DNA from: a virus | Taxonomy: Duplodnaviria; Heunggongvirae; Uroviricota; Caudoviricetes | Virus record (IMG/VR): IMGVR_UViG_3300046311_000202 | DNA: 64,000 nt | Strand: one strand, 5' to 3' | In this document: piece by piece, positions 9,818 to 26,190 of the stretch | How positions within the stretch are numbered: position 1 is the stretch's first letter | Layout: every line of letters begins with the position of its first letter | Notes under the pieces: generated by a model | The model's input: the letters and a program-made list of their open reading frames with translations, nothing else | Databases searched by the model: none | What the model was told of the DNA's origin: nothing | Program-made: the position numbers and the translations under genes

Positions 9818-12800
9818 ATGCAAGAAGATAAATTATTAGATTTTAAAAACCAAGAGATTGGCTTTTTAGTAGAGGATATAAGAGATAAGAATAGAGAAAA
9901 AGCATTATCAGTAGTAGCACCTATTGATGATGCTTTAGCTAATCTTGGAGCAATGGGCAAGTTGCCAAAACAAGCTCCAGGAACTTCTTTAGATTCTATG
10001 ATAGCCTCTGCTACAAACAAACCAAAAATGGTAGACTACTCAAACGTAAAGTATGAGGATGTTTATAGTAAATATAGTGATGGGACTTTTACTCCGAGAT
10101 ACGACCAGTACTCTACAGTAAACCTTGATCAGGAAGAGGTTGCAGCAAGCAGACAATCTTCTGGGGATATTTGGGCAAATGCATTACCTAAATTTACAGG
10201 TAAGCTATTGACAAATACTATAGGCCAATTAGGTGGAATCTTCTATGGCATAGGAGCAGCAGTTAATACAGGTAGTATGCAGTCTATATATGACAACTCC
10301 TTTATGGATGCAGTCAATGACGCAAATACCTTTATGGATAACAAGCTTCCAACATATAAATCAAAAGCAGACAGAGAAGCAACAGGATTAGATTATTTGA
10401 CTAAGCAAACAACTTGGGCAGATGATTTCTTGAATGGTACAGCCTTTTTTGGAGGAGCTATATTATCTGAGGCTGCTATAGAGTGGGCTACAGGTGGTGC
10501 GGCATCAAGTACAGCATTAGCTAGATGGGGAGCTAAGTTAGAACAACTACCAGGATTTGCTAAGACTTTGAATGCAGCTAGAAAGGCTTCTAACCCTGCA
10601 TCTAAAGCTTTTGCAACAGGTAAATTATCCACAGGACTAGCTACAAATTTAGGTAAGACAGGTGAATTACTTCATACAATAAGATTTACAGCAACAAGTG
10701 CCGGATACGAATCTGCATTTGAGGCTAATGCTTATATGAAAGAATCTGAAGCTAATTACTACAATTCTTTCCAAGAAGCTAATGGTAGAATGCCTACAGC
10801 AGAAGAAGAAATGGATTTCAGAAGAAACCTAAAGACATCTGCTGATGGATTATTTGGCTTCAATATGGCGATAGTTGGATCATCTAACTTAGCTATAATG
10901 GGAAAATGGTTTGACGTAAAAAGCCCCCTAACAGCACCAAGCAAATGGGCCAACTCTAAATTATTTGGGGTAGGTTACAAAAAAGTAGGTGATGAAGTAG
11001 TAGAGATAACAGGTAACAAACTTCAAAAAGCTTTAGGTAAAAGCTACGGCTTTGCTAAACCTATGTTTGTTGAAGGTGTCTGGGAAGAGGGTATGCAATC
11101 TGTTGGTACTAATACTGCCAGTAATTGGGTACAAGCTAAATACGATCCAAAATATACAAAAAATACATATGACTTAGTAGACTCTTTTTCAGACGGACTT
11201 GCCGAAACTTACGGTACAGCAGAAGGTTGGAAAGAGATACAAATGGGTATGCTTATTGGTTTATTAGGTGGAGCTGCAGGTAACAAGTACAGCACTGGGA
11301 AATTTAACCCAGAGTACTCACAAGCAGTAGCTAAAAATAAACTTACTGTAGATACCATGAATGCCTATTCTGGTAAAAGAGTTGCTGAAACTATGGCTTA
11401 TGCAAACCGTGTACAAAGTGCAAACGAGGCATCAGAACAAGCACAAGCAGCAGGAGATTTTACAGGGTCAGAATTAGCAAGACAATCAGCAGCTTTAGCT
11501 CAATTAAACTTTGCATACAACCTTGACTACATGGATGATGCAATGGAGAATACTATAACATCTATCAGAAACATAGATAATCAGTCTTTGATGACTGAGT
11601 ATGGTGTAGATGAGAAATCTGCAGAAGACATGAAAGCAAAAATGATCGAGGAGTACAAAGGTACTGCAGAATCATACAAAAAGAATAGAGACTTTGCTGA
11701 GTACTTCATAGGTAATAAATTATCTTCAGAAGAAAAAGCATTGTTACAAAAACATGATGTAAACTCTTTAAAAGAAGCTTTAGCTTACGAGCTTACATTA
11801 GGTGAAAAAGCAGATAAATTTTCTAAAGATATCTTACAAGCTATCAAAGAAAAAGTTGGTACAACAGTGGCAGGGCAAGAGGTTTCTGATGCTATGACTA
11901 TAGATGATGTACTGACTAAAGCCGGAAAACAAACAAAAAAAGAAGGTGAAAGAAAAGTATCTGAAATAACAAAGCTTAAAGCAAAAGTTACAGCCTTAGA
12001 AGAAGAGTACAAAAAAGTACAAAACACTTTTTATAACTCAGTTTCAGAAGAAGAGAAAAAGACATTGCTAGGAAAACTAGACAGCATAACTTCTCAAAAG
12101 CAAGAGGCAGAAACTAAAAGAGCTGAATTAGCAAAAGAATACGAAGCATTGTTTACTGCTGCTAAAATGAAAAACCCTTTCAGTAAGGACGGATCTAGTA
12201 TTGTTATAACAGCAGCAAAACTTGATGTTTTAAGAGAACAAGCAGGAAATGTTAAATCAATAATTTCAGAATACCAAAAAGCTAACCCACAAGAGTCAGC
12301 TCAGTTAGAGAAGTTAGTTGAAGAGTATGGTAGATCATTGGATGCATTCCAAAAGTATGCAGATTTAGCTAGACAAATAACTGACCCTAGCTTAGGGTTA
12401 AGAGGTAAAAGAAACTTTATTTCTGAGATAAAAAGAGACAAGTCTCCTAATGAAGTGACTGTTGAAATGCTTGAGACACTTTCTGGACGTATGGCACAAG
12501 CTACAGAGCAAGTAACTCAAGCCACAATAGAGGGTAATGAAAGAGTAAAATCGGCAGTAGAAGAAGCAGAAGCTAAGAAAAAAGGAGCTACTATAGATAA
12601 ACCTACAGCAGAACAAAAGCTAAACAAAAAGCAGAAAGAGATTGATAAAGTAAACGAAGAGTATAACTCTGAACCAATAGGTTCAAAAGCTATAACAGAT
12701 ACTATATCAAAACTAGCAGAGGATAACTACCTATTTACACATGTTACAAGTGAGCAAGAAGCTAAGAACATATTAGCTAATGGGTTTACTGTAAGTTTAG

Positions 12801-15484
12801 GTAAAGGTATCTCTAGCACTCTTACACAGTTAGGCTTAGATGGTGCAATGGCCCAAATAGACAGCCTTATAAATGGGGAGATAGTACACAGAGATCTAAA
12901 TAATGATAGTGTAGCTATTGTAGCTGTGCCTAAGTCGGCTATTGATGCCACAGAAGGTAACACTATTTCAGATAAATTTGAAAATTGGTTAGTAGAAAAT
13001 AATCACATAAACGAAAAAGGTGATCTAGCTATACCTAAGGAATTAAATGCCGGGTATCTTAGTGAGAGAAGCAAATTTGTATTAAGCAATACAGAAGCTT
13101 CAGAAAAAGAAAAACAAGCTAAATTAGAGGCTATTGAGAAAAAGTATGAGCCTAAATCCAAAGAAGAGACAGTAGCTAAGCTTAGAGCTCAAGAGAAAAA
13201 AGAATTAGCAGAAGCTATCCCTAACATAAACGATTACAAAGTAAACGGGAAAGTAGACAAGGATAAGATAACTAATGCAGAAGATAAGGCTAAGTTTGAA
13301 GAGATCTATGCTAAATACGACAAGCTTATTACCCCTTTATTGGAGGAAGCTAAAAAGCCAGAAGTACAACAAGCAAAGAAATCAATAAGACAGACTGTTA
13401 CAGACATGATCAAAAACAGTCCATATCTTTTAGAATACTATGGGCAAGATGCTGTTCCACAAACACCAACTTCTGATGAAATTGAAGAGTTTTATGAACT
13501 AGCAGCTAAAGCTATAGATGATCCTAAGATTGATACTGATCTTATTGCATTTAAGAACCCTTACAACTCTAAGAGATTTACTCCAACAACAAGACCATCT
13601 TTAACTAAGGCAGAGGTAATAAGATTACAAGAGCTTAATAATAAAATGGCAGATTGGCAATTATTAGAGGGAGTAGCAAATGACTCAGGGATATCTATAA
13701 AAGATATGTTGTTACAAGATATAGCAACTAATCAATTCGTAGAGCCTAAGATAAACAGTGAGCTTACAGAAACAGAGCTTATAAACATATCTGAAAGAGA
13801 GCCAAAAGAAACTGACGAAGGAGAGGGAATAAGAAATGAAGAGGTATTACAGGTATATCAAAACGTAGTTATAAAAAGAAACAAGTTTGGCACCACAATA
13901 TCTCACTTAACACTTCCAGGATTGATTTCAAGAATGGATGTAGCTGATACCGTAGCTTATGTAGAAACAGAGGTTGTAGACAAAAAGGTAAAAACTGTAC
14001 CTAATACAGCCAAAGATATCTCAGTTGCACAAGTAGCTGCTAACGTTAAGCCAGGGGCTAATTTTGTTGTAACATTTAAAGACGGAGCAACAGCTACAAT
14101 AATTGTAGATAGAAGTGGAAGCTTAGTTATAAAGAAAGAGTCAGAAGTAAACAAAGTACTAGAAGAATCTGGTATGAGCTATATAGAGAACTCTTTTACA
14201 AAAGACTCAGGTTTCTCTCCGGTATACAGTAATGACACTGGTGAGATGATGCTTACAGATTTTAAAGACTCTAGCGAATACTCTCCTATGGAACTTTACA
14301 ATATGGTTCCAGGAGATACAGTGACTTTCACACTTGATTTAACTAATGACTACAATCAAAAGATAATTCAAGATTATATGGATGCTGTACAAGAGTTTTC
14401 AGATAAAGGCGGATTACCAGAAGTTGATGGAAAGATATCTCCAGAACTACTTAAGATAGAAAAAGACCTAGCTGATCAATTAAAGATCAATGTAACGGAC
14501 ATCAAAGGTAGAAAACTTGGAGACTTGAAGGCTAACTATGACACAAACAATAGTCCAGAGTTTTTATTACTTAGAGAAGAAGCTTTAAATATTGTTAAGA
14601 GTAAAGGTGCAGGTACCATAGTAGATATAGATTTACAACTATCAAAAGAGAGTTTTGTAAAACATGTTTTCTTAGGTATGCCTAACTTTAACATAGAAGA
14701 AGGAGCTATAAAATACTTTGAAATATCACCTAAAGCTGTTGTTGACTACGGATACGTACAGGATGGTAAAGTGGTACTAAAAGGCAACACTAAGAATGTA
14801 AGACAAGACTATGTGAAAAACTCGCTTAAGAAAGAAGGTTTGCCAGTAGTTGTGTTCAGTCAAGGTAAGTATCTTGTTGCTTTCCCTATGCAGTTGAAAG
14901 AAACGGCATCAAATATGGGGGATGTAGCAGCCGACAATTTAGCATCAGCTAAAAATTTAGGAGTTGGAGTGTTAGAGTTTAACAAGACTTTAGCAGAAAA
15001 TGGATTATCACCAGCTACATACAATTTGTATTACTTAAGTGGAGACAACCAAAGCTTATCAGATATGAATGGAAAAGCTTCTGAAAGTTTACTCAAAGCC
15101 ATAGATGACCTAAACAAGGTAAAACAAACAGTAGATGTATCTACATGGATGTTACCAGAGCATAGCAAAGAGAACTTAGTAAATGAGGCATCTTTAGCTA
15201 TAGACATTGAAAATAACCCCCTATCTTCACCTAAGCCAATAATAAACTTAGATAGAATGGTAGATTTTACTAGAGATTGGTACTCTGAGTTACAAGCTAC
15301 AGGGTCACTATCAGATGAAAAAGCTGCTGAAATAGCTAATAAGATCTTAAACAGAGAACCTATTACAGTTAAAGAGAACGAAGCATCTGATCATCCATTA
15401 GTACAAGAGTATATTGATGAGCAGTTAAGCCTAAATCAAGATCAGCAATCTGATATAGATGACGCTAAGAACGAAGAATGTTAA
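9818..15484 (+). CDS. Giant virion protein of 1888 aa, putative tail or ejected cargo protein
   Basis: A 5.7-kb uninterrupted ORF with long coiled-coil-like K/E-rich stretches. No recognisable enzymatic motif by eye. Confidence 0.5.
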   Translation: MQEDKLLDFKNQEIGFLVEDIRDKNREKALSVVAPIDDALANLGAMGKLPKQAPGTSLDSMIASATNKPKMVDYSNVKYEDVYSKYSDGTFTPRYDQYSTVNLDQEEVAASRQSSGDIWANALPKFTGKLLTNTIGQLGGIFYGIGAAVNTGSMQSIYDNSFMDAVNDANTFMDNKLPTYKSKADREATGLDYLTKQTTWADDFLNGTAFFGGAILSEAAIEWATGGAASSTALARWGAKLEQLPGFAKTLNAARKASNPASKAFATGKLSTGLATNLGKTGELLHTIRFTATSAGYESAFEANAYMKESEANYYNSFQEANGRMPTAEEEMDFRRNLKTSADGLFGFNMAIVGSSNLAIMGKWFDVKSPLTAPSKWANSKLFGVGYKKVGDEVVEITGNKLQKALGKSYGFAKPMFVEGVWEEGMQSVGTNTASNWVQAKYDPKYTKNTYDLVDSFSDGLAETYGTAEGWKEIQMGMLIGLLGGAAGNKYSTGKFNPEYSQAVAKNKLTVDTMNAYSGKRVAETMAYANRVQSANEASEQAQAAGDFTGSELARQSAALAQLNFAYNLDYMDDAMENTITSIRNIDNQSLMTEYGVDEKSAEDMKAKMIEEYKGTAESYKKNRDFAEYFIGNKLSSEEKALLQKHDVNSLKEALAYELTLGEKADKFSKDILQAIKEKVGTTVAGQEVSDAMTIDDVLTKAGKQTKKEGERKVSEITKLKAKVTALEEEYKKVQNTFYNSVSEEEKKTLLGKLDSITSQKQEAETKRAELAKEYEALFTAAKMKNPFSKDGSSIVITAAKLDVLREQAGNVKSIISEYQKANPQESAQLEKLVEEYGRSLDAFQKYADLARQITDPSLGLRGKRNFISEIKRDKSPNEVTVEMLETLSGRMAQATEQVTQATIEGNERVKSAVEEAEAKKKGATIDKPTAEQKLNKKQKEIDKVNEEYNSEPIGSKAITDTISKLAEDNYLFTHVTSEQEAKNILANGFTVSLGKGISSTLTQLGLDGAMAQIDSLINGEIVHRDLNNDSVAIVAVPKSAIDATEGNTISDKFENWLVENNHINEKGDLAIPKELNAGYLSERSKFVLSNTEASEKEKQAKLEAIEKKYEPKSKEETVAKLRAQEKKELAEAIPNINDYKVNGKVDKDKITNAEDKAKFEEIYAKYDKLITPLLEEAKKPEVQQAKKSIRQTVTDMIKNSPYLLEYYGQDAVPQTPTSDEIEEFYELAAKAIDDPKIDTDLIAFKNPYNSKRFTPTTRPSLTKAEVIRLQELNNKMADWQLLEGVANDSGISIKDMLLQDIATNQFVEPKINSELTETELINISEREPKETDEGEGIRNEEVLQVYQNVVIKRNKFGTTISHLTLPGLISRMDVADTVAYVETEVVDKKVKTVPNTAKDISVAQVAANVKPGANFVVTFKDGATATIIVDRSGSLVIKKESEVNKVLEESGMSYIENSFTKDSGFSPVYSNDTGEMMLTDFKDSSEYSPMELYNMVPGDTVTFTLDLTNDYNQKIIQDYMDAVQEFSDKGGLPEVDGKISPELLKIEKDLADQLKINVTDIKGRKLGDLKANYDTNNSPEFLLLREEALNIVKSKGAGTIVDIDLQLSKESFVKHVFLGMPNFNIEEGAIKYFEISPKAVVDYGYVQDGKVVLKGNTKNVRQDYVKNSLKKEGLPVVVFSQGKYLVAFPMQLKETASNMGDVAADNLASAKNLGVGVLEFNKTLAENGLSPATYNLYYLSGDNQSLSDMNGKASESLLKAIDDLNKVKQTVDVSTWMLPEHSKENLVNEASLAIDIENNPLSSPKPIINLDRMVDFTRDWYSELQATGSLSDEKAAEIANKILNREPITVKENEASDHPLVQEYIDEQLSLNQDQQSDIDDAKNEEC

Positions 15485-15501: not shown

Positions 15502-15533
15502 TTTGGTTTTTACAAAAAAAAGTACTAATTTTG
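15502..15533 (+). promoter_or_regulatory. Promoter: TTTG at 15502-15505, 20-nt spacer, TAatTTTG at 15526-15533
   Basis: Same architecture as the promoter at 6901. The ORF-track TTG start at 15531 lies inside the -7 box. Confidence 0.6.
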
Positions 15534-15554
15534 CATAAAAATAAACTAAGAAGA

Positions 15555-18500
15555 ATGAGCTTAAAGTGTAGAATTTATAAAGATGAAAATGGGGAGATTG
15601 ATTTTGTTGAAACTGCCAATGGTAGTAGAAGTAAATTATTTGATACATTAGTAGATATAACAGGCGGTAATAAAAACACCGCCTTAAATCTTTATGCCTT
15701 GACAGAAGTTGAGGATTTTAAAGACATTGCAGCGGCCAAAGTAAACTCTATTAAGAATAGAGTAAAAGGTTTAGCAAAAAAAGACAGTTTATCTAATAGT
15801 GTTATAGCTCAATATAATAAACTAGAAGACGGATCCACTCCAAAAGACATTACAGCTAATATAATAGAGAAACTATCTAACACAGGTTTATCTAATAGTG
15901 TTGCAATGCTTAACGGGGCACAAATTGCAAGCAAACTAAGAGAGTTTGGTAGAGAGAATGTATCAGAGAATACTGCAGGGTTTGTACACAAAGGAAATGT
16001 GTATTTAAACTCAGATATTATGGACTTAGATACACCTATCCATGAGTTTGGCCATATCTATTTAGACTGGTTAAAAACTAATAAGCCTGAACTTTACGAG
16101 GCAGGGGCAGCTTTAGTAATTAAGAATAAACAAGAGGCTAAGTCTTATGTAAACTATGTTAAACAAAATCAACCTAATCTAGTAGAGGGTACTGAGGAGT
16201 TTAACAATGAGGTGCTTTCACAAGTTATAGGGGACCAAGGAGCAAAGCTTATCAACTCTAAAGTTAGAGGTAGCTTAAAACAATGGTTAAACGATTTATT
16301 TGAGGCTATCAAAAATGTACTAGGGCTTTCAGACTATACAGCTAAACAGATTTCTTCTATGACATTAGGAGAGTTTGGTAAAGCTGCTGCTACAGACCTA
16401 TTAACAAAGAAGTTTGAAGGAAGCAGAGACTTTACAGACTCAGACAGCATTATGCTATCTGTACTTTCTGACTATAGAGACAATACTAGATTTAAGTTCT
16501 CAGATCTTATTTATCCAGACGTTGTTTTTAAAGATGTATCTAGCAAAGCAGAAACAAAAGTAGCAGTAGATTTCTACAAAAAGATTGTTAGTAAATTCAA
16601 CAAAACTTTCGACAGAGATTTAAAACTAACCTCATCGAATACAGCAGAAGACTTCACAGTAACAGTTGAGTATGAAACAGGGCTTAAACCAAAGTACTTT
16701 GCATACCCAACAGCGACTATGGGAGAGCATGCTACAGTGGATAACATAGACAAAAATGTACCTTTAACAAGTCTTAGACATGAATTGATACATGAGATGC
16801 TTGTTAAGAATATTACAGATAAGTTTGAAAGAATAAACAACCTTGATAATAGTGCTAACATAGTATCTATAGAGGAGGTACAAAGAAATAGAGCATACAA
16901 CTACACATTAGAAGATGTGTTCTTTGAAAGAGTTGTAGAGAATGTAGAGAGAAACCCGGACAACAAAGATACTTTTGAAGTTTCTACTTTTGGTACAGAC
17001 ATCATAAACAGAGTTAAGAAAGAATTAGAAGGGGCTGAGATCACAAAAGACAATGTGATAAGCACTTTAGAAGAACTTTTTGATGGAAGTAACCCATGGT
17101 TAAAGTCTACAGTACTTGATATTTTTGAGAATAAAGTAGACTATTCTGTAGAGGACCTTTCTCAACTAAACGAAGAAGTAGGAATAATGTTCAAACAAAG
17201 GTTTGATCTTTCTAGAGATATCTTTAGTAAAGAACTACAAAGTAAAATATTTGACTTTGCTACTTTTTTCAACGAAGAGTATTCAGGGGTTCTTACTAGA
17301 TTGAATAAAATAGAAAAAAGAAATAAACTTACTAGGGTAGTTCCTGGTAATACATTATTTGTAGAGAGTTTGCCGGCTGCTACAACTATAGCAAATGCTT
17401 ACAAGAGGGATATGGGGATACCTTTATCAGAGACTCGTAAGATAGAAATGCTAGACATAGACAACAGCAAAAAAATAGCTCAAGAATTTGAGAGCATGGT
17501 AGACGAAAGAGGTAACCTAAGCTCTGAAACAAAAGAGGCTTACGATGCTTTAATAACAGAAACTTTAGCACAGTATGAAAAGATACTAGACTATGGTTAT
17601 GTTATGGAGATCAATAATGATGAGCCCTATTCAAGTTCTAAAGAGATGATAGAAGACCTACGTGATAACAAACGTATGAAAGTATTTTCTACAGAGTCAG
17701 GATTTGGAGTAGGGGGAATAACAGCTGCTGAAAAAGCAAGTGACCCTAGACTTGAAACTACAAAGTTTACAGATGTAAATGGATACCCTTTATTATTTAA
17801 TGACGTATTCAGATTTGTACATGACTTTTTTGGACACGCTAAATTAGGAAATGGATTTGGTGCGATAGGTGAAGAGAATGCTTGGAATGTACATTACGAG
17901 ATGTACTCTCCAAAAGCTAAGAGAGCGATGACAACTGAGACAAGAGGTCAAAATTCTTGGGTTAATTTCTCAGGAGTTAATGATGAAGCTTTTGCTCTTA
18001 GAGATCAAGCTAGAAAGCTTAGAAAAGAGGGTAAATTGGAAGAAGCAAATGCTATCACTAGTCAAGTATACGATATGATGAAGTTTGCAGATCAAAAGCT
18101 AGGTCTTATGCCTATGTGGGTATCAAAAGCAAACTACACATCTCTAGAAGATAGAAGATCAATAGAAGTTGATGGAAGCAAGATATTCTTCAGAAACCAA
18201 ATCAACCCTATAACAGGGGAAGCTACAGGTAAAGTAGAGATGGAGTTGATAGAGACACCAGTAGAGCTAAGAGGCCAAGGTAAAGCAAGAGAGACGTTCA
18301 AAACAGCTTTAAGATATACAGACTCTTTAGGAAAAGATACAGTCTTAACAATAGCAAGTAGAGATAAATTTACTACAGATGCCGGACTAGAGAGATTCTA
18401 TTCATCATTAGGTTACTCTAAGACATCGGACTTTGAAATGGAGAGAAAGGCTAAGCCAGTTCTTCCTGCAAGCTATGATGATAATGGAGAGCCTGGAGTT

Positions 18501-20381
18501 AAGGATTTGATGGAGTACATAAACTCTACTAGCACATCTGAAAAGTTATCAATAGAAGATCAAATTGTTTCAAGAAATGTAGCATTATCTATGGGGGCAA
18601 AATCTTCTGATGAACTTATTTCAAACCTAGAGAAAGCTATACTAAAAAATGGAATGTTTGTTTTTGATAAAGGATCTCTTCAAAAAAGTGGAGTGTTTAA
18701 TAAGTATGAAGCTACTAAAATAGCAAACTCATTGCCTTTACAAAGAAGCATAAAAAATGCATTTTTACAATTAAAAAATACAGAGCCTTTTACACTAGAG
18801 TACGATGAAAATTTTATCACTACTATAGGTTCACAACTTAATATTTTTGGTAAGCAGGAAGCTATGAACCCGTTTGTAGCAGAAGCAGAATTAGCTACAG
18901 ATATTGCAGGAATTAGCGAGGAAGAAGTTGCAGATTACTTACTACCAGAACTTGGAGAGAAGTACTTAAGCAACCCAAAATTCAAAGAGGCTGTAAACAA
19001 TATAGCTCTGAATAACAAGCTTACAAATGTAAAGGTAGTAAAAGACGGATTGCTAGAGGACAAAACAGTAGAAATAGAAGAGACTATAGCTAACACATTA
19101 ATAGACACTGAGAACCAGGAATTAGCCGAAAATATAAGGTTTATAAATGAGGATATTTCAGAAGAAGTTTGGGACGAAAATCCAAACCTAGTTGTAAGAG
19201 TCTTGGAGGCTATAAAGAAAGATGCTATTAATAGTGGTATAGACTTAAAGGATATTTCAACCAGAGTTCTTAGCAATAGTAGAGAGGACATTTTATATTT
19301 ATTAGAAACTGTTGAAAACCTATTACAAGATGGTTTAACAGAACCTAACGTAAGAGAGTTCTCAGTAGCTTATAAAAAGTTCTTTGAGTTAGATACTATA
19401 GAGACCCAAGTAATAAAGACAGACAGTGAATTTGATGTAGTAGTTGAGGCGAATATGTCTGAGTACGAATTATTCAAAAACTTTGGTTTAGTTAAAAAGC
19501 AGGGGGATATCTACAGACAGACAGAAGAGCAATCACTAGAAGATCTATACGAAGCAATTCTTGAATATCCAGAGGTAATACCATCAGATATCACAACAGT
19601 AGAAGATCTGAAATCTTTTGTAGAAAAAGATATTACAAACTTAGAAGTTTCTGACTATGAAGTAGATCCAGATATGTTAGCTAAGATGTACTTATACAAA
19701 AGGTATTTTGGATTCCCTATTAAAGCTAGGGAGATACAGGTTTCTACAGAAGGCTTAAACAAAGTTACATCTAGCCCTGAGTACTTAGTTACAGAATTTG
19801 TAAAAGAGTTCAACAAGTGGGTCCTAGAGACAGAGAATAAGTACTTCAAGGTAACAGAAAAAGGTATAGAGTTAACAGAAAAAGACCCTTTATCAAAAGA
19901 GGAGGCTATCTTAACTGTACCAGAAGAGTTCTTGAAAGATCTCTCAGAGTATGATGCATTATCAAAAAACCTTAATTTAGGTATAGAGTCAAAAGAACTA
20001 GTTTTTGAAGACTACGATAGTCAATCACAACAAAGAGACTTCTTTGCTAATAACCCAAGCCTTGCTAAAAAGTTATCAGGAGATTACTTATACATAGAAG
20101 ACGGTGTACTAGCTGCTAAGAATGAAACTGAGACTTTTGTAAGAACACCACAGGGGGTTTTTGAAATGATATACGAAGCAGGGAACGTTAAGTTTTACAA
20201 CAAACTGCCATCTATGGATGCAAATTTTAAATTGATCGGTTTAGAAAAACCTTTATCGGATGTCAATTTTAATAAGTATCAGTATCTAGAGAATTCACCA
20301 AGTGAGTTTAAGGTGGCTAAAAACTACTATACTAAACAAGAGTTGAAACAAATAGACGATGAATATTTCAACTGTCAATAA
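15555..20381 (+). CDS. Giant virion protein of about 1609 aa from the ATG at 15555, with three zincin-like metallopeptidase motifs (HEFGH, HELIH, HDFFGH). Putative polyvalent or ejected effector protein.
   Basis: HEFGHIY is at nt 16041-16055, HELIHEM at 16779-16799 and HDFFGH at 17820-17837. HExxH is the zincin zinc-binding signature. The first in-frame ATG after the promoter is at 15555, and the track start at 15531 is a TTG. Confidence 0.5.
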   Translation: MSLKCRIYKDENGEIDFVETANGSRSKLFDTLVDITGGNKNTALNLYALTEVEDFKDIAAAKVNSIKNRVKGLAKKDSLSNSVIAQYNKLEDGSTPKDITANIIEKLSNTGLSNSVAMLNGAQIASKLREFGRENVSENTAGFVHKGNVYLNSDIMDLDTPIHEFGHIYLDWLKTNKPELYEAGAALVIKNKQEAKSYVNYVKQNQPNLVEGTEEFNNEVLSQVIGDQGAKLINSKVRGSLKQWLNDLFEAIKNVLGLSDYTAKQISSMTLGEFGKAAATDLLTKKFEGSRDFTDSDSIMLSVLSDYRDNTRFKFSDLIYPDVVFKDVSSKAETKVAVDFYKKIVSKFNKTFDRDLKLTSSNTAEDFTVTVEYETGLKPKYFAYPTATMGEHATVDNIDKNVPLTSLRHELIHEMLVKNITDKFERINNLDNSANIVSIEEVQRNRAYNYTLEDVFFERVVENVERNPDNKDTFEVSTFGTDIINRVKKELEGAEITKDNVISTLEELFDGSNPWLKSTVLDIFENKVDYSVEDLSQLNEEVGIMFKQRFDLSRDIFSKELQSKIFDFATFFNEEYSGVLTRLNKIEKRNKLTRVVPGNTLFVESLPAATTIANAYKRDMGIPLSETRKIEMLDIDNSKKIAQEFESMVDERGNLSSETKEAYDALITETLAQYEKILDYGYVMEINNDEPYSSSKEMIEDLRDNKRMKVFSTESGFGVGGITAAEKASDPRLETTKFTDVNGYPLLFNDVFRFVHDFFGHAKLGNGFGAIGEENAWNVHYEMYSPKAKRAMTTETRGQNSWVNFSGVNDEAFALRDQARKLRKEGKLEEANAITSQVYDMMKFADQKLGLMPMWVSKANYTSLEDRRSIEVDGSKIFFRNQINPITGEATGKVEMELIETPVELRGQGKARETFKTALRYTDSLGKDTVLTIASRDKFTTDAGLERFYSSLGYSKTSDFEMERKAKPVLPASYDDNGEPGVKDLMEYINSTSTSEKLSIEDQIVSRNVALSMGAKSSDELISNLEKAILKNGMFVFDKGSLQKSGVFNKYEATKIANSLPLQRSIKNAFLQLKNTEPFTLEYDENFITTIGSQLNIFGKQEAMNPFVAEAELATDIAGISEEEVADYLLPELGEKYLSNPKFKEAVNNIALNNKLTNVKVVKDGLLEDKTVEIEETIANTLIDTENQELAENIRFINEDISEEVWDENPNLVVRVLEAIKKDAINSGIDLKDISTRVLSNSREDILYLLETVENLLQDGLTEPNVREFSVAYKKFFELDTIETQVIKTDSEFDVVVEANMSEYELFKNFGLVKKQGDIYRQTEEQSLEDLYEAILEYPEVIPSDITTVEDLKSFVEKDITNLEVSDYEVDPDMLAKMYLYKRYFGFPIKAREIQVSTEGLNKVTSSPEYLVTEFVKEFNKWVLETENKYFKVTEKGIELTEKDPLSKEEAILTVPEEFLKDLSEYDALSKNLNLGIESKELVFEDYDSQSQQRDFFANNPSLAKKLSGDYLYIEDGVLAAKNETETFVRTPQGVFEMIYEAGNVKFYNKLPSMDANFKLIGLEKPLSDVNFNKYQYLENSPSEFKVAKNYYTKQELKQIDDEYFNCQ

Positions 20382-20475: not shown

Positions 20476-23400
20476 ATGAGCTGTACGATTAAATATAATG
20501 AGAATGGTAGTATAAAAAACGTTCTTGACCTAGAAGGTAACGAAAGTAGACTATTCAAGCAGATAGCTAGACTACCACATGTTGGAGGTTTAGAAGAAGC
20601 TTTGTCTATTTTTAAGAATGTTTATTCAGAAAAAATAAATGAGCAAAATCCTATCTCTTTCTTATCAGATAAAGGAGCCAAATTAGAGTCTTTCAAAGAG
20701 GCTTTAGCTGACTCTTCCGGAGGAAATATAGAAATAGGTATAGATACAGATGCAGGTTTCAAAACCTTATTATCTGTGTCATCTAACACAAACCCAGCAA
20801 CTTACGAAGGGTTCATAAACAACTTGATAAAAAGCGATATTTTATCAGATGAAAAGATTATTGAAGACGGGCTGACTTACCACAAGGCAGCAGGTAACCA
20901 TGCACCGTTACAAATAGCGAATGAGCAGATTATAAAAGAGGAGGCCAAAACCAATCTAAATAGAAAAAACTTTAAGATCTATAAAGACGGTAGAATTGAA
21001 CTTATCAACAAGAAGAATACCATAGAAGTAAATGGTAAAGACATGCCTGTTGAAGAGTTGAGAACTATGTCTTTGAGAGAGTTAGAAAAATCTATGAGTA
21101 AAGAGGATGCTTTGGAGCTGATTATCAACAATGCAGTCTCTGAGGCACTACCTTCTGGAGTAAGTTCAGAAACTATGACAGCTACAGAAGAAGCTCTTAA
21201 ACTTAACTTATTGGATTTACTAAACGGTATGGGAGTTAAAGTAACTTCTATCGCTAGCTACGTTAGTAACTACAACACAAGAAACGGTGTAGATCCATCG
21301 GCCAGAGCCCTTTTAGATGTAGCTGAACAAGTTATAGCTTTTAAGGACGGTCTTATTTCTATAGACTCTCTTACAGAAGAGACTTCACACTTTATTGTAG
21401 AGACTTGGGATGATGCAGAAATTGAAAACTTACTAAGAAATATACACAAAACTAGTTCTTATGTAGAGTTCTCTCAATCATACAGAGAGTTATACACAAG
21501 AGAAAATCCAGGTATGTCTGCTGAACAAGTAGAGAACTTGGTTAGAAGAGAGCTATTAGGTAAGGAATTAGCAAAAGCTATACAAGAAAGATTTAATACA
21601 GAGGGTAAAACAGAAACCCAAAAAAGCATAGTAGGAAGACTTTTTGAATTATTAAGAAAGTTTTTTGACTCAGTGGTTGCAAACGATACATTCTATTCAG
21701 ACTTAGAGGCATTAACATTGAAAGTGGAGGACTTGCTGTTAACAAAGGATGTGAATAAGTATTTGAACTTAGATAAAGCTAAGACTAAGACTTTTAGAAT
21801 GTATCAGCAACAAGCTAGTGGTAATGTAGTTATAGATACCAAAAATGCTATTGTTAAGAAATTAGTAAAGTCTTTATTAGAACAAGAAAAAAGTCTTAGA
21901 AAAGCAGGTAGAGGATCTAGTGCAGGTATTCAAATGTTAAATGAGACTCTAGAAAAAGCTATTACAAAAAGCTCAATACTAGACCTTGTAGCCTTGGCAA
22001 AAAGACAAGCAGACTACGTTTCAACGGCTATCGAAACTTCAAAAAAGAGAGGGGAAACTTTATCAAATGAAGAAGGTATAGTACTTAAAGGTTTGACAGA
22101 ACAAATTGTACCTATTTTATCTAGGTTATCAGCTTTAGCTAAAGAGGATACAGATTTGGCAGACATCTTAACAGACATTGAAGCAGTAAGCACAAAAGTT
22201 TTAGCTGTAACCGGAGCCGCTAAGAATGTACAGAATGATGTACTTGATAGAATTATAGACCGTTTAATGGTTAGACATAGATTAGACGAAGATGTAAGGG
22301 ATAAATTAAAAGATGCAGTACTTGTTGCTACAAGAGATACACAAATGTTGTATGCTGTTTTTGGTCAAATTACCCACGCACACGATCCATTACTAAACAT
22401 ATTAGGTAGTGTTATTGCTGATATGACACTTGATGCAGAACACAGTTATTTAAAAAGAGCTAAGGAGTTTCAAGCAAAAATACGTGAGCTTGGTTTTACA
22501 GAGTCTGACTTGCCTAAACTTATGGACAAAGATGGTTACATCCTGAGTGCATACGATTTTACAGCTTTTGAAGAGGATGTATTGAACTTAAAACTAGAGG
22601 CTTATAAAAAGTATTCTGGTACAACTATGTCTGATGAGGCTATTAAGAAAGGTATAAAAGAATACAACTTACCAAAAATTGAAGATGAAGATGCAGAAAA
22701 AGCTTATACAAAAGAAGTTAATGATGCAGTTAATTCTAAGATAGAAAGAAGCTTTACTGAGGAATACTACCAAGGAAGAGAAGATAAATACAATAGATTA
22801 GGTATAAGTGAGGCTACAAAAACACACCTTAAATTATTGTCTGTAGACTTAGGTAGCCTTATGTCTAGAGTAAAGAATGAAAAAGGATTACCTAGATATA
22901 CAGCTCAAAATAAATATGAGTTAGATGCAATAAACTTGAAAAGAAAGGCCTTAAAGTCTTTACATGATAGTTTGGGGGATCTAAAAACTGGTATAAGACC
23001 GGTAGACTCACCATCAAGTACTTCAATAGAAGTGAATGGATCATATTTTGAACTTAGACCTAATGCAAACGAAGAGTCTAGAATAGCTTTTGAACTAAAC
23101 AAATTAGATCAAGCGTTCTTAGCTGAGAAGCAAGAAGAGGCACGACAAGCAGGAGGCCAAAAAATAGATGTAGAGAAACTTGCACCTAAATTTTTGGAAG
23201 AGTTAAACAGAATTGAAAAAGAAGAGGGAAGAGAAGCAGCAGTAGAATTCTTTACATTGAATTCAAGCATAGGTTTTTCTAACGACTTCTGGAACAACTT
23301 TGATAACTCTGAAAGTATGATGACTTTCTTAGACTCATACAGTCAAAGACCAGATGCAGAAGAAGTTTGGTCTGATAAAATAAAAGCATACAAAGAGTTT

Positions 23401-26190
23401 CTAGATAACAGAAAAGCTATATTAAAGCAATACCAAGACTCTAGAAACTATACTAACACTATGGCTGAAGAGATGTCTGATCAACAAAGAGCCAAGGTTA
23501 TTGAGTTGTCAGAAGACATAGACAGAATATCTTCAGAGCTTTACACAATATTCAAGAATAATGTAGAGCAGGATTCAGAAAGAACGGTAATAGCAGAGTC
23601 TACACCAAACCAAGCTTACTATCAAGCTCTAGAAGATGGTAGAATTACAAAGCCAGAGGCTAAGTATGAGTTTGCATTGAAAAACATGACTGTAGACAAC
23701 ATTAAGAAAGCTAGACAATTTGCAGATGCTTTAGATGATGCAGTTAGAGGAAGAAGGGTATCTGAGAGTCATAGAAACTTAATACTAAGAACAGTAGGTA
23801 TTAATGACCTATCTGAGTTGAATGAAGATGACATAATAACAGCAAAATTAAAGTATGCAGAGTCTAAATTGGCACCTTACTATAAGTCTTTTGCACCTCT
23901 TGGATTAGAGAGCTTTTACAACTCTTTGAAAAATGGTACACAAGATGTCTCTACTTTAGTTAAACAACTAAATGAAAGAACAGACATAAAAGTAAGTAAC
24001 AATTTTTCTTACTACGAGATGGGGGAGATTAAATTCAAAAACCCTAACTATAAAGAAGATTTCGAGGGTGGTTCTAAGCAACCAAAACTTGATCAATATC
24101 TTAACAAAGAGTTTGTAAGATTGTTCAACCCTATCCTAGATAGCAATAACAATCCTATCTTAGATAGCAATGGTAAAATACAAGCTACTAGCAACCAGAA
24201 ATTATTTGCTTTGTACGATGAGTACATAGAGTTTCAAAAAGAGAGTTTAAGATCTTACGGTGAATTAGGGACACACAATTTATACCTAGCTCCACAAGTA
24301 TCGAAAACTAGTCTTGAAAAAACTAACGATTTGCTGAAAGGTAAAAAAGGTACGATAAAAGAATGGTGGAGAGATATTGTTAGATTTAGAGTAGACGAAC
24401 AAGCCTTTGGAGAGGAGTTGGATGGGGAAGCATTAGCAAAGACTGCTGATATGAGAATCGTACCAAAGTACTTCTTAAAGAAACTAGAAGAGCCTACAGA
24501 TGTATCTACGGATCTTTTTTACAGTTCTATGTTACTAGCTCAACAATCACAATTATATAAGGCTAGAAAAGAGAGATACTCTGAGTTTGCTACCCTTAAT
24601 GATTTAGCTTTAAACAGAGCTTATCCTGAAGGTAAAGCAGCTACATCTACAAATACTTACAAGATGTTTCAATCTTACTACGACCATAATTTATTTGGGG
24701 TAAAAGAAAAGAGAAACTGGCGAGTAAATGTACCAGTACTAGGACAGATAGATGTAACAAAAGTTGTGAATGTATTACACGGATGGATCCGAAATAACTC
24801 TTTGGCATTGAACTTTGTTGTACCAGTTACTTCATGGGCTACAGCTGAAGCCTCTCTTCTTATAGAGAAGTATGTAGGACAGTACGTAGATAAAAATTCA
24901 GTTAGCTTAGCAGGGAAAGAGTTTTTAAAAATATCTTACCCGGCCATAAAAGAGAACTTAGAGATTGATTCTAAATCAAGGCTTTCTATGTTGGGAGAAC
25001 ACTTCAACATATTTGAACTGAGCAATAGATTTGAAAACTCTATGTATGCAAAAGCACCAAGAGTACTTGCAAAATCCATGTATATTTTACATACCGCAGG
25101 TAACTTTGTGCCACTATCAAAAGCAATGTTGTCACAGTTATATGGTCACAGAGTATATGAGGGAGGATTAGCAGATTTCAAACAGTTTGAAAAGTTGTAC
25201 AAAAGGTCTAACCCATCTGCTACTATAAAGGATGTAAAAAATCAATGGGAGCTTCTTGCTGATAAATCTTTTTATAACTACTTAATAACAGATGAGGCTT
25301 CAGTGTCTTATGATTATGACAGATTAGCAGAAGATATGAATAGAGTTAACGATGACAAGTTCAAAGAAGACTTTAGAAACATGGAGTTAGGAGTAGCTAA
25401 TAAACTTAAGAAAGTTGTAGAGAGAATAGATGGTATGATTACCAACGAAGAAAGAACGAGTATGCAAAGAGACGTTCTTGGAAGATTTGCAATGACACAT
25501 AAAGGTTGGTTAGCAATTTCTGCAGCAAACAGGTTTAAAAGAAGACACTTAAATCTACAGACAGGACAAATGGAAGAGGGTACTTACTACTCTTTATATA
25601 ATTTTGTTGTAGAGAACTTCAACAACGGTTTGAAAAAAGGTGGTATGAAAGCCGCTTTAGCTGAGTTAAAGGATCAGTACGTTAATGGAGACGAAGTACA
25701 AAGAGAAAATATTAGAAGAATCCTTGTTGACTTTAACTTCCTTACATTATTGTTCTTGCTAACATTAGGGTTAGGGCACTGGGCAGATGATGAAGAAGAT
25801 ATGTGGGCAGCTCAATTCTCAGCTTATATGTTAGAGAGGGTTACCACAGAGACATCTTCTACTCAACTAGGTGTTTTTGGAGAGTTTTATGCTTCTGTAA
25901 AAGAACCTCTAGTAGGGGTTCAAAAGTTAGAGAACTTATTTAAGGTTACTCAAGCATTTGATACAGACGTAGTAAAAAGTGGTAGATTTTCAGGGATGAC
26001 AAATCAACAAGTTTATTTCTTAAAGAATGTTGTTGGAGCAAAACCTACATTTGATATCTGGAACGCAGGTAATTTGAACTCTTTGAGAGAGACATACGAT
26101 TACTTTAATAAAGATGAAGCTCTTATACCAGTGGCTTACCTTATAGATGAAGATGATCTTAAGCCAGGTGGATGGGCAGCAGAATATTAA
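20476..26190 (+). CDS. Giant virion protein of 1904 aa. Putative tail or ejected cargo protein with a predicted TM segment near the C-terminus (ILVDFNFLTLLFLLTLGLGHW).
   Basis: A 5.7-kb ORF and the last gene of the plus-strand block. Has a hydrophobic helix near residue 1760. Confidence 0.5.
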   Translation: MSCTIKYNENGSIKNVLDLEGNESRLFKQIARLPHVGGLEEALSIFKNVYSEKINEQNPISFLSDKGAKLESFKEALADSSGGNIEIGIDTDAGFKTLLSVSSNTNPATYEGFINNLIKSDILSDEKIIEDGLTYHKAAGNHAPLQIANEQIIKEEAKTNLNRKNFKIYKDGRIELINKKNTIEVNGKDMPVEELRTMSLRELEKSMSKEDALELIINNAVSEALPSGVSSETMTATEEALKLNLLDLLNGMGVKVTSIASYVSNYNTRNGVDPSARALLDVAEQVIAFKDGLISIDSLTEETSHFIVETWDDAEIENLLRNIHKTSSYVEFSQSYRELYTRENPGMSAEQVENLVRRELLGKELAKAIQERFNTEGKTETQKSIVGRLFELLRKFFDSVVANDTFYSDLEALTLKVEDLLLTKDVNKYLNLDKAKTKTFRMYQQQASGNVVIDTKNAIVKKLVKSLLEQEKSLRKAGRGSSAGIQMLNETLEKAITKSSILDLVALAKRQADYVSTAIETSKKRGETLSNEEGIVLKGLTEQIVPILSRLSALAKEDTDLADILTDIEAVSTKVLAVTGAAKNVQNDVLDRIIDRLMVRHRLDEDVRDKLKDAVLVATRDTQMLYAVFGQITHAHDPLLNILGSVIADMTLDAEHSYLKRAKEFQAKIRELGFTESDLPKLMDKDGYILSAYDFTAFEEDVLNLKLEAYKKYSGTTMSDEAIKKGIKEYNLPKIEDEDAEKAYTKEVNDAVNSKIERSFTEEYYQGREDKYNRLGISEATKTHLKLLSVDLGSLMSRVKNEKGLPRYTAQNKYELDAINLKRKALKSLHDSLGDLKTGIRPVDSPSSTSIEVNGSYFELRPNANEESRIAFELNKLDQAFLAEKQEEARQAGGQKIDVEKLAPKFLEELNRIEKEEGREAAVEFFTLNSSIGFSNDFWNNFDNSESMMTFLDSYSQRPDAEEVWSDKIKAYKEFLDNRKAILKQYQDSRNYTNTMAEEMSDQQRAKVIELSEDIDRISSELYTIFKNNVEQDSERTVIAESTPNQAYYQALEDGRITKPEAKYEFALKNMTVDNIKKARQFADALDDAVRGRRVSESHRNLILRTVGINDLSELNEDDIITAKLKYAESKLAPYYKSFAPLGLESFYNSLKNGTQDVSTLVKQLNERTDIKVSNNFSYYEMGEIKFKNPNYKEDFEGGSKQPKLDQYLNKEFVRLFNPILDSNNNPILDSNGKIQATSNQKLFALYDEYIEFQKESLRSYGELGTHNLYLAPQVSKTSLEKTNDLLKGKKGTIKEWWRDIVRFRVDEQAFGEELDGEALAKTADMRIVPKYFLKKLEEPTDVSTDLFYSSMLLAQQSQLYKARKERYSEFATLNDLALNRAYPEGKAATSTNTYKMFQSYYDHNLFGVKEKRNWRVNVPVLGQIDVTKVVNVLHGWIRNNSLALNFVVPVTSWATAEASLLIEKYVGQYVDKNSVSLAGKEFLKISYPAIKENLEIDSKSRLSMLGEHFNIFELSNRFENSMYAKAPRVLAKSMYILHTAGNFVPLSKAMLSQLYGHRVYEGGLADFKQFEKLYKRSNPSATIKDVKNQWELLADKSFYNYLITDEASVSYDYDRLAEDMNRVNDDKFKEDFRNMELGVANKLKKVVERIDGMITNEERTSMQRDVLGRFAMTHKGWLAISAANRFKRRHLNLQTGQMEEGTYYSLYNFVVENFNNGLKKGGMKAALAELKDQYVNGDEVQRENIRRILVDFNFLTLLFLLTLGLGHWADDEEDMWAAQFSAYMLERVTTETSSTQLGVFGEFYASVKEPLVGVQKLENLFKVTQAFDTDVVKSGRFSGMTNQQVYFLKNVVGAKPTFDIWNAGNLNSLRETYDYFNKDEALIPVAYLIDEDDLKPGGWAAEY

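Follow-up and report, generated by a model that had tools for sequence, protein, structure and literature searches.

A probable polyvalent virion protein of a marine phage with predicted zincin-type, HDxxGH and acetyltransferase modules

Three histidine motifs in one open reading frame

In a 64,000-nucleotide stretch of tailed-phage DNA (the window), one open reading frame encodes a giant protein with three short histidine motifs, HEFGH, HELIH and HDFFGH. The original prediction suggested that they may be copies of one metallopeptidase module in an ejected effector, which raises the questions of whether the motifs are real, what the domains around them are, what such a protein does for the phage and whether a single module gave rise to all three.

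With an ATG start, the open reading frame encodes 1608 aa plus a stop codon, and an alternative TTG start at 15531 would give 1616 aa. The ATG is favoured because most homologues begin at the same Met, that of 'MSLKC'. Counted from this Met, HEFGH lies at residues 163-167, HELIH at 409-413 and HDFFGH at 756-761. The residue numbers given originally (171, 417 and 764) are 8 too high for the ATG start and match the TTG start instead; the spacings, put at about 250-350 residues, measure 246 and 347. The protein is divided here into a leader and modules A, B, C, G and D as follows.

15555..20381, + strand: whole open reading frame, 1608 aa, probable polyvalent virion protein, second in a row of three giant virion proteins
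15555..15794, + strand: N-terminal leader, aa 1-80, 'MSLKCRIY...SKLF...AL.LY', from homologue comparison
15837..16439, + strand: module A, aa 95-295, predicted gluzincin metallopeptidase of the N4-vRNAP MPTase type
16452..17339, + strand: module B, aa 300-595, probable second zincin-like module unrelated to A (alignment, AF2 model, hhalign)
17352..18140, + strand: module C, aa 600-862, putative metal-site domain
18150..18452, + strand: module G, aa 866-966, minimal GNAT acetyltransferase
18492..20378, + strand: module D, aa 980-1608 (~630 aa), conserved C-terminal virion module

All three motifs are genuine and lie well outside what chance would give. With His at 0.6% of the residues, ~0.017 motifs of the forms H[ED]xxH and H[ED]xxxH together would be expected, and three or more such motifs were obtained in 0 of 200,000 shuffles of the protein. 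Only nine His are present (145, 163, 167, 392, 409, 413, 756, 761 and 780), all inside modules A, B and C, and eight of the nine are invariant in homologues. Conservation of the His/Glu positions, on which the original prediction had been staked, holds in all three modules, the motif residues being invariant in the aligned rows.

Predicted metal-site modules and the acetyltransferase module

Neither the family libraries nor PDB sequence searches recognised modules A, B or C. Pfam and NCBIfam searches with the whole protein, each module and homologous segments gave nothing meaningful, and PDB sequence and profile searches with modules A, B and C gave nothing significant. The comparison of the P1 DdrB MPTase with modules A, B and C was likewise not significant. 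The matches of Foldseek against viral models were all to giant proteins of other phages and superposed poorly, and the PHROGs search matched the protein only to a family of 'unknown function', over module C. Alignments of homologues and an AF2 model covering aa 90-600 (modules A and B; pLDDT 86.9) show the following motifs in A and B.

16041..16055, + strand: HEFGH, aa 163-167, predicted active-site helix of module A (alignment, AF2 model)
16206..16235, + strand: NEVLSQVIGD, aa 218-227, later helix of module A with E219 as candidate third zinc ligand (alignment, AF2 model, N4 alignment)
16728-16730, + strand: H392 of module B, also invariant (alignment)
16779..16796, + strand: HELIHE, aa 409-414, predicted helix behind the beta-sheet of module B (alignment, AF2 model)
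16908..16940, + strand: LEDVFFERVVE, aa 452-462, helix of module B with invariant E453, E458 and E462 as candidate third ligands

In the model, modules A and B are alike in having a helix, a beta-sheet, an HExxH helix and a later helix with a conserved Glu. Module A is predicted to consist of a backing helix (97-108), a small sheet (strands 115-119, 142-145 and 148-152), a helix behind it (159-176) bearing H163-E164-x-x-H167, and a downstream helix (214-234) that includes E219. All 72 ungapped rows have H163, E164 and H167, and all 74 have E219, so that the conserved downstream ligand sought for the original prediction has a candidate. Moreover, module A is detectably similar to an established zincin: it aligns with N4 gp50 around the only HExxH of that protein (probability 84%, E 8e-6, 126 columns; probability 45% in a local rerun with a smaller alignment), with HEFGH placed onto HELVH and NEVLAQ onto NEFMAW, in which the Glu corresponding to E219 is matched. 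The exact identity of HEFGH to the anthrax lethal factor pentapeptide had been pointed out at the outset, and the likeness to lethal factor is one of fold and motif only; the lethal factor family (MEROPS M34, Pfam ATLF) gave no Pfam match to module A at E up to 10, nor to any of 32 homologous segments. Module A is thus best described as a gluzincin of the N4-vRNAP MPTase or lethal-factor-like kind (H163, E164, H167, E219), which would be expected to bind zinc and to be proteolytic.

Module B is probably a second, independent zincin-like module. Its model comprises a helix (331-352), strands (357-362, 367-372, 381-383 and 393-395), the HELIH helix past the sheet (406-416) and a downstream Glu helix (452-465). 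H392, H409, E410, H413 and E414 are found in 22 of 22 rows. Module B also occurs as stand-alone proteins of ~304 aa. It was not matched by the N4 MPTase, and with the clostridial neurotoxins (MEROPS M27), to which HELIH had been compared, no sequence or fold match was found beyond the pentapeptide. Taken together, the protein is predicted to hold at least one zinc protease and probably a second.

Module C is of another kind. The substitution of Asp for Glu in the third motif was observed correctly in the original prediction, and the idea that this motif is a degenerate HExxH was rejected: HDxxGH is the invariant signature of a separate and very large family (~5,500 clusters at 50% identity), for which there is no Pfam model. 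Its two motifs in the protein are the following.

17820..17837, + strand: HDFFGH, aa 756-761, invariant HDxxGH motif (alignment)
17868..17894, + strand: GEENAWNVH, aa 772-780, next helix (alignment)

H756, D757, G760, H761 and E773 are present in 82 of 82 rows, position 774 is Glu in 79 of the 82 and Asp in 3, and H780 is present in 80 of 82. Across 267 family members HDxxGH was found in 268 of 268 occurrences, never with Glu, and the signature can be written HDxxGH…GEExA…H. Module C is found in polyvalent proteins and also in solo phage proteins of 230-450 aa, and the giant proteins that bear it also carry ART-PolyVal, InPase, ddrB-ParB, MuF, Acb1, Zeta toxin and PLA2 domains. The deposited annotation of C-bearing proteins as lysins with a beta/gamma crystallin motif was set aside; it stems from BLAST similarity to Bbp10 of Bordetella phage BPP-1 and is uninformative on the function of module C.

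In place of the catalytic Glu of the zincin motifs HExxH and HExxxH, module C has Asp, and there is a real, if less than even, chance that this domain is no peptidase but a metal-dependent hydrolase or transferase with a small-molecule or nucleotide-derived substrate. The invariance of this Asp argues for such a role, as do an additional invariant motif, ETRGQNSW(V)N, typical of substrate binding, and the co-occurrence with nucleotide- or NAD-related domains (ART, InPase, Acb1). In addition, a solo module C gene adjoins genes for an NAD-binding Rossmann protein and a DUF3293 protein in one bacterial contig (a literature search on DUF3293 found nothing), and profile comparisons of module C with modules A and B and with the N4 and P1 MPTases were all negative; its PDB fold matches were masked by GNAT matches. 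However, its predicted topology, a long helix, beta-strands, the HDxxGH helix and then the EE helix 11-12 residues downstream, fits a gluzincin. The motifs HExxGH and EExxAE of M49 dipeptidyl-peptidase III resemble those of module C, which also counts against a non-peptidase. HEXXXH variants of the MPTase are, moreover, known in polyvalent proteins (PMC5512222).

Module G has a GNAT fold together with the acetyl-CoA pyrophosphate-binding loop R/Q-x-x-G-x-G/A, found here at one position.

18270-18287, + strand: RGQGKA, acetyl-CoA loop motif of module G

Virion setting and proposed function

To place the protein in the phage, its genomic setting and homologues were analyzed. It is encoded in a run of seven same-strand open reading frames, five of which, on both sides of it, match PHROGs; four of these five are annotated 'virion structural protein'. 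The two adjacent ones are themselves giant.

9818..15484, + strand: upstream giant virion open reading frame, 1888 aa, its single Cys the last residue (codon 15479-15481)
20476..26190, + strand: downstream giant virion open reading frame, 1904 aa, phrog_37651 virion structural protein, with residue 3 as its single Cys (codon 20482-20484)

The locus and the virion-protein block of Cellulophaga phage phi17:2 are syntenic. At the corresponding position phi17:2 has gp038 (517 aa, 'virion structural protein'), which matches the protein only over the C-terminal ~520 aa of module D (aa 1089-1607). The phage is a distant relative of Cellulophaga phages phi17:2 and phi4:1 (Lightbulbvirus). The motif DxDxD of crAss-type vRNAPs is absent from the protein and from both giant neighbours; a single chance match to it lies in the open reading frame 6953-9808.

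BLAST of the protein against 84 homologues showed that the leader and modules A, B, C, G and D recombine independently. The leader (~75-80 aa) is kept at the N-terminus of homologues regardless of the modules behind it, and it resembles the N-terminus of the next giant open reading frame (20476). Module A is the most constant cargo, present in 73 of the 84 homologues and twice in some. Other domains carried by homologues include ART-PolyVal (PF18760), LPD23 (PF18838), LPD38 (PF18857), ParB and RadC, and solo versions of the modules adjoin portal and head genes.

These features are those of the polyvalent proteins of phages and conjugative elements described by Iyer, Burroughs, Anand, de Souza and Aravind in 2017 (PMC5512222), in which the zincin-like MPTase is the commonest domain; ~36% of polyvalent proteins have 1-5 copies of it, and ~8% of those have more than one (PMC5512222). 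The protein combines several disparate predicted activities in one polypeptide (zincin-type A and B, metal-site C and GNAT G), its modules are shuffled with recognised polyvalent domains in homologues and in C-bearing proteins, and it is encoded among virion or late structural genes. It is therefore quite likely that a marine Flavobacteriia phage here encodes a virion protein of the polyvalent class, in which a frame of leader and module D holds an inserted cassette of the unrelated enzyme modules A, B, C and G. The synteny with phi17:2 and the domains of the homologues bear out the original idea of a polyvalent ejected effector, ejection itself being probable; for the suggested action on peptidoglycan peptides no support was found. 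By analogy with the phi17:2 and phi4:1 homologues of module D, whose deposited annotation is the basis for a virion location, the frame would bring the protein into the virion, from which it would exit with the DNA at infection. The metallopeptidase modules may then cleave their own polypeptide into working parts, or host proteins, and modules C and G may modify other host targets.

That the metallopeptidase modules act solely in trans, cleaving host proteins such as defence or translation factors and not their own polypeptide, is possible but somewhat doubtful. Such effectors are among the options listed by Iyer et al. (PMC5512222). The closest solved folds are toxins and effector proteases (anthrax LF, PPEP and CapP; the fold matches obtained for modules A and B also include ArdC), two different zincins per protein exceed the need of self-processing, and the solo module B proteins have nothing to process. 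However, action in cis and in trans cannot be told apart from the sequence, and the two roles are compatible.

It is unlikely that module A, and possibly B, serves mainly as a packaging or docking domain with a retained zincin fold, proteolysis being secondary or absent. In N4, encapsidation depends on the MPTase-containing region of the vRNAP, to which module A is homologous, and the vRNAP enters the virion uncleaved (PMC5512222), so that a protease role of the modules is not guaranteed; the constancy of module A among the cargo modules also fits a packaging domain. Nevertheless, H163, E164, H167 and E219 show no variation among 72-74 sequences with identities as low as ~30%, which would be needless in a purely structural domain and argues against a role in packaging only.

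A tandem duplication of one metallopeptidase module, which the original prediction had raised as a possibility and for which the roughly even spacing of three H-[ED]-x(2,3)-H motifs along one polypeptide would speak, is already contradicted and highly improbable: hhalign probabilities for A-B, A-C and B-C are 0.3-1.4%, the three modules are unlike in length, in secondary structure and in their accessory conserved residues, and each is present without the others in many proteins. The three motifs would instead represent three metal sites, each acquired separately.

Terminal cysteines and comparison with known systems

The protein has only two cysteines, one at each end.

15567..15569, + strand: Cys5, the N-terminal one of the two cysteines
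20373..20375, + strand: Cys1607, penultimate residue, invariant in the module D alignment

Together, the three giant proteins (~5,400 residues) contain four Cys, all within 5 residues of a terminus, against a Cys background of 1.2% in the other open reading frames of the window. The same pattern, with Cys at the C-terminus only in the first protein, at both ends in the middle protein(s) and at the N-terminus only in the last, was found in 17 of 17 related loci, including Cellulophaga phages phi17:2 and phi4:1, a human-gut phage and relatives down to 23% identity; one or two extra internal Cys occur in single proteins of 4 of the 17. Some relatives have four consecutive giant proteins, and their extra middle proteins also have Cys at both ends. 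A lipoprotein reading of the N-terminal Cys was rejected, as the Cys lies at residue 3-7 with no preceding signal peptide.

The terminal-only pattern across the 17 loci suggests a head-to-tail disulfide linkage. We tentatively propose, from this sequence pattern, that the three giant proteins (four in some relatives) might be joined in the virion into one chain of ~5,400 residues, in which the C-terminal Cys of 9818-15484 would pair with Cys5 and Cys1607 would pair with Cys3 of 20476-26190. Such a chain would leave by way of the tail, its proteins following one another in a set order, and would come apart in the reducing cytoplasm of the host; there the zincin modules would complete its dismantling. 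When the literature was searched for ejection or cargo proteins linked through terminal Cys or disulfides, the sole result was the inter-subunit disulfides of the PhiCrAss001 tail and portal vertex. If true, the linkage would order and tether ejection proteins in a manner not described before, and it is directly testable on the cultured Cellulophaga phages.

The protein offers a clean, well-modelled case of how phages assemble polyvalent injected proteins from a fixed frame and a swappable enzyme cassette. It also defines three metal-site domain families (A, B and C), none covered by family libraries; module C is among the commonest unannotated domains of polyvalent proteins and a good candidate for biochemical characterisation. 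The AcrVA5-like acetyltransferase, if it entered the host together with the DNA, would provide an anti-defence enzyme before phage gene expression. Its resemblance to AcrVA5 (PDB 6iuf), an anti-CRISPR enzyme that acetylates Cas12a, is one of fold only, at 18% identity and without a sequence-level match, and AcrVA5 is a solo early protein, whereas module G is one domain of a virion protein.

Among phages with related loci, gp039-gp038-gp036 of phi17:2 and phi4:1 have the same gene order as the three giant open reading frames and an identical terminal-cysteine pattern, the ends being '...GFMC' in gp039, 'MASCAR...' and '...KELKCN' in gp038 and 'MSCK...' in gp036. Their gp036 and 20476 share 29.5% identity over the full length, and phi17:2 gp038 is 23% identical to the matching part of module D. 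Unlike the present protein, gp038 lacks any enzyme cassette. The MPTase region of N4 gp50 (aa ~2130-2448) and module A both belong to giant proteins packaged in the virion, presumably so in the present case; in contrast to the N4 vRNAP, the protein has no RNA polymerase module, and the identity of module A to the N4 region is only ~21%.

In design the protein is of a kind already known, fitting the class of Iyer et al. 2017. Like other polyvalent proteins it is giant, virion-associated and multidomain, with disparate enzymatic domains and a zincin-like MPTase hub, often multi-copy, plus a GNAT. Pfam models, including those that came out of Iyer et al. 2017, match none of modules A, B and C, and terminal-only cysteines, as in this protein and its neighbours, were not found described for polyvalent proteins in the literature searched. 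It differs further from the polyvalent proteins described in that its cassette is flanked by an unchanging leader at the N-terminus and an unchanging virion module at the C-terminus.

Modular organization of the 15555-20381 protein

With its start at ATG 15555 and its stop at 20381, the target ORF encodes a product of 1608 aa. An alternative in-frame start, TTG 15531, would lengthen the product by 8 residues and was chosen by gene callers for several homologues (N-terminus 'MHKNKLRRMSLK'), but conservation starts at the ATG (window 15531-15557), and ATG numbering was adopted because the same Met, in 'MSLKC', opens most homologues. The coordinates and '1609 aa' of the original prediction match the ATG, whereas its motif residues (171, 417 and 764) correspond to the TTG form. 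As a result of a search of 5.8 billion proteins, 84 relatives of 1,160-2,800 aa were found, and BLAST of the query against these divided the target into independently recombining blocks.

Blocks and motifs of the protein encoded at 15555-20381 (+ strand)
aa 1-80, leader
aa ~95-295, module A, putative gluzincin, HEFGH at aa 163-167
aa ~300-595, module B, zincin-like, HELIH at aa 409-413
aa ~600-862, module C, putative metal site, HDFFGH at aa 756-761
aa ~866-966, module G, AcrVA5-like mini-GNAT
aa 980-1608, module D, C-terminal virion module

Among the relatives, B is missing in some, C is missing in some and A is doubled in some, and in many of them ~1 kb of other material separates the leader from A. 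Solo proteins are also found for B (~304 aa) and C (230-450 aa). The leader, with the motif C-x-[IV]-[KR]...S-x-LF...AL-x-[IL]-[YF], is retained regardless of the downstream modules and may serve as a signal for docking, packaging or ejection. Over their N-terminal ~50-75 aa, the target and the downstream giant ORF 20476-26190 are also homologous (28% identity, E 5e-5), the homologous leaders lying at window 15555-15794 and 20476-20700 and, in the related locus L001, at 16862-17040.

Seven ORFs on one strand occupy window 159-26190; beyond them, the opposite strand carries a block for replication and nucleotide metabolism. PHROG matches were obtained for five of the seven, four to 'virion structural protein' families and one (ORF 9818-15484) to a family of unknown function; the sole PHROG match of the target, over module C, is to an unknown-function family. 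Among cultured phages, the closest relatives are phi17:2 and phi4:1 of Cellulophaga (Lightbulbvirus), whose gp036 is 29.5% identical to ORF 20476 over its full length. The phi17:2 protein syntenic with the target, gp038 (517 aa, annotated 'virion structural protein'), matches only target aa 1089-1607; the conserved frame therefore consists of the leader and module D, and everything between is added cargo.

Three distinct metal-site modules

The three motifs are confirmed and are not a product of chance: composition predicts ~0.017 of them, and three were never reached in 200,000 shuffles. Histidine accounts for 0.6% of the target residues, and all nine lie inside the three motif-bearing modules; eight of them are invariant in the homologue alignments. 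The motifs had been read as a triplicated or tandemly duplicated module. In profile-profile comparison, A, B and C proved dissimilar to one another (probabilities 0.3-1.4%), and this reading was therefore rejected; the modules are three separate acquisitions.

In the AlphaFold2 model of aa 90-600 (32-row alignment, mean pLDDT 86.9), A is predicted to comprise helix 97-108, three strands, helix 159-176 carrying HEFGH, and further helices including 214-234, and B to comprise helix 331-352, four strands, helix 406-416 carrying HELIHE, and helix 452-465. Both predicted topologies correspond to the zincin-like metallopeptidase core described by Iyer et al. 2017 (PMC5512222), in which a three-stranded sheet and an N-terminal helix are combined with an HEXXH helix and a Glu-bearing helix. 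Candidates for the third zinc ligand are also present downstream: E219 in A, found in 74/74 sequences in the context N-E-x-L-A-x-x-I-G-D, and the invariant E453, E458 and E462 on helix 452-465 of B. Fold matches included the LF catalytic domain, CapP, PepO/neprilysin and M32 carboxypeptidases, with modest scores not attributable to A or B individually.

Independent evidence is available for A, which can be aligned (probability 84%, E 8e-6, 126 columns) to the part of the phage N4 virion RNA polymerase, gp50, that Iyer et al. (PMC5512222) defined as MPTase, with HEFGH placed onto HELVH-2228 and NEVLAQ onto NEFMAW; when rerun locally on a thinner alignment, the comparison gave a probability of 45% and E 2e-4. 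A is thereby shown to be homologous to the N4 MPTase, and one module or more to have a predicted zincin fold. Profile comparison found no link between B and the N4 MPTase comparable to that of A, so the zincin-like assignment of B rests on its motif and predicted topology. Solo B (304 aa) is also found among small ORFs without Pfam match on phage-like contigs (L005 2036-2950; L006 1247-2161), so this zincin-like domain can act outside a polyprotein.

Module C (window 17352-18140; relatives P0090-P0359), for which no Pfam, NCBIfam or PDB counterpart was found, had been taken as a zincin-like copy with Asp in place of Glu. HDxxGH is constant in 268/268 occurrences, followed by G-E-E/D-x-A; the Asp defines the family and is not a decayed Glu. 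In the confident model of aa 595-985 (pLDDT 90.7), a long helix and several strands precede helix 748-762 (R753, H756-D-F-F-G-H761), helix 770-781 (G-E773-E774-N-A-W...H780) and helix 786-805 (invariant ETRGQNSW); the invariant motifs of the family are R-x-V-H-D-x-x-G-H, G-E-E-x-A and E-T-R-G-Q-N-S-W. The adjoining module G has a GNAT fold. An exhaustive profile search for C yielded 5,554 cluster representatives (50% identity), 4,102 of them below 1e-30, mostly within proteins of 1,000-4,000 aa, which also contain ART-PolyVal, InPase, ddrB-ParB, MuF, LPD38, Acb1, Zeta toxin and PLA2; solo copies adjoin portal and capsid genes. Few unannotated domains of giant phage proteins are as common as C. 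In two bacterial-looking loci (L007 8001-10468; L008 1248-3715), a solo C gene is followed by genes for an NAD-binding Rossmann protein (TrkA_N / AdoHcyase_NAD-like) and DUF3293, which may form an operon and hint at a small-molecule substrate.

Terminal cysteines of the giant virion proteins

The target contains exactly two cysteines, C5 and the penultimate C1607. The upstream (1888 aa) and downstream (1904 aa) giant proteins each contain one, whereas the three virion ORFs preceding them contain none and the mean Cys content of the window's ORFs on the other strand is 1.2%.

Cysteine codons of the three giant ORFs (window, + strand)
15479-15481, last residue of the upstream protein
15567-15569, C5 of the target
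20373-20375, C1607 of the target
20482-20484, residue 3 of the downstream protein

The pattern in phi17:2 is identical (gp039, last residue only; gp038, C4 and C516; gp036, C3 only). Nearly all full-length target homologues have exactly two cysteines, in the contexts M-S-L-x-C-R... and ...Y-F-x-C-Q, and C1607 is invariant in the module D alignment. In 17/17 related loci (L001, L013-L028), including a human-gut phage and relatives only 23% identical, the first protein carries a C-terminal Cys only, the middle protein(s) Cys at both ends and the last an N-terminal Cys only; single proteins in four loci (L015, L016 and L022 among them) have one or more additional internal Cys, and two loci have an extra middle protein with Cys at both ends. 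The middle and last proteins share homologous leaders. The simplest reading suggested by these sequences is that the giant virion proteins may be linked head-to-tail via their terminal cysteines; homotypic pairing or metal bridging is also possible.

One relative, L013 (6965-9934), has a further protein of 989 aa inserted in the proposed chain; it carries a ResIII helicase domain and has Cys at residue 4 and the last position, so the number of links varies between phages. In phage csAssE-Sib (L016 15217-21619), the ORF 20476 homologue is annotated as two overlapping CDSs (281 aa, 'MTSTC' start; 1885 aa, 'structural protein'), probably by a frameshift or annotation split, and a block of small genes lies between it and the chain member before it. 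The PhiCrAss001 virion has documented inter-subunit disulfides; a literature search found no account of linked cargo or ejection proteins. To a specialist, the surprising part would be the proposed terminal-cysteine chain, and cultured phages are available for testing it.

Comparison with polyvalent proteins

The target fits the polyvalent proteins of Iyer et al. 2017 (PMC5512222), giant virion-embedded fusions of disparate enzymes. The reading of the original prediction is partly supported: the modular build and virion-gene context are shown, and the tandem duplication is rejected. Giant polyvalent proteins are strongly depleted in Cys, with 0 Cys in 63/92 C-bearing proteins >1,500 aa (P0210-P0359; L002, L003, L004) and also in Gundel_1 gp74 (2482 aa), Pag-Yong1 (2772 aa) and OANV1 gp16 (2986 aa). 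The zincin-like MPTase is the commonest domain of the class, present in 1-5 copies in ~36% of polyvalent proteins and in more than one copy in ~8% of those, and has been proposed either to process the polyprotein into its functional units or to attack proteins of the host (PMC5512222). The target itself would be packaged in the virion and ejected from it, its invariant metal-site residues would bind zinc, and its putative proteolytic activity may be directed at its own polypeptide or at host proteins.
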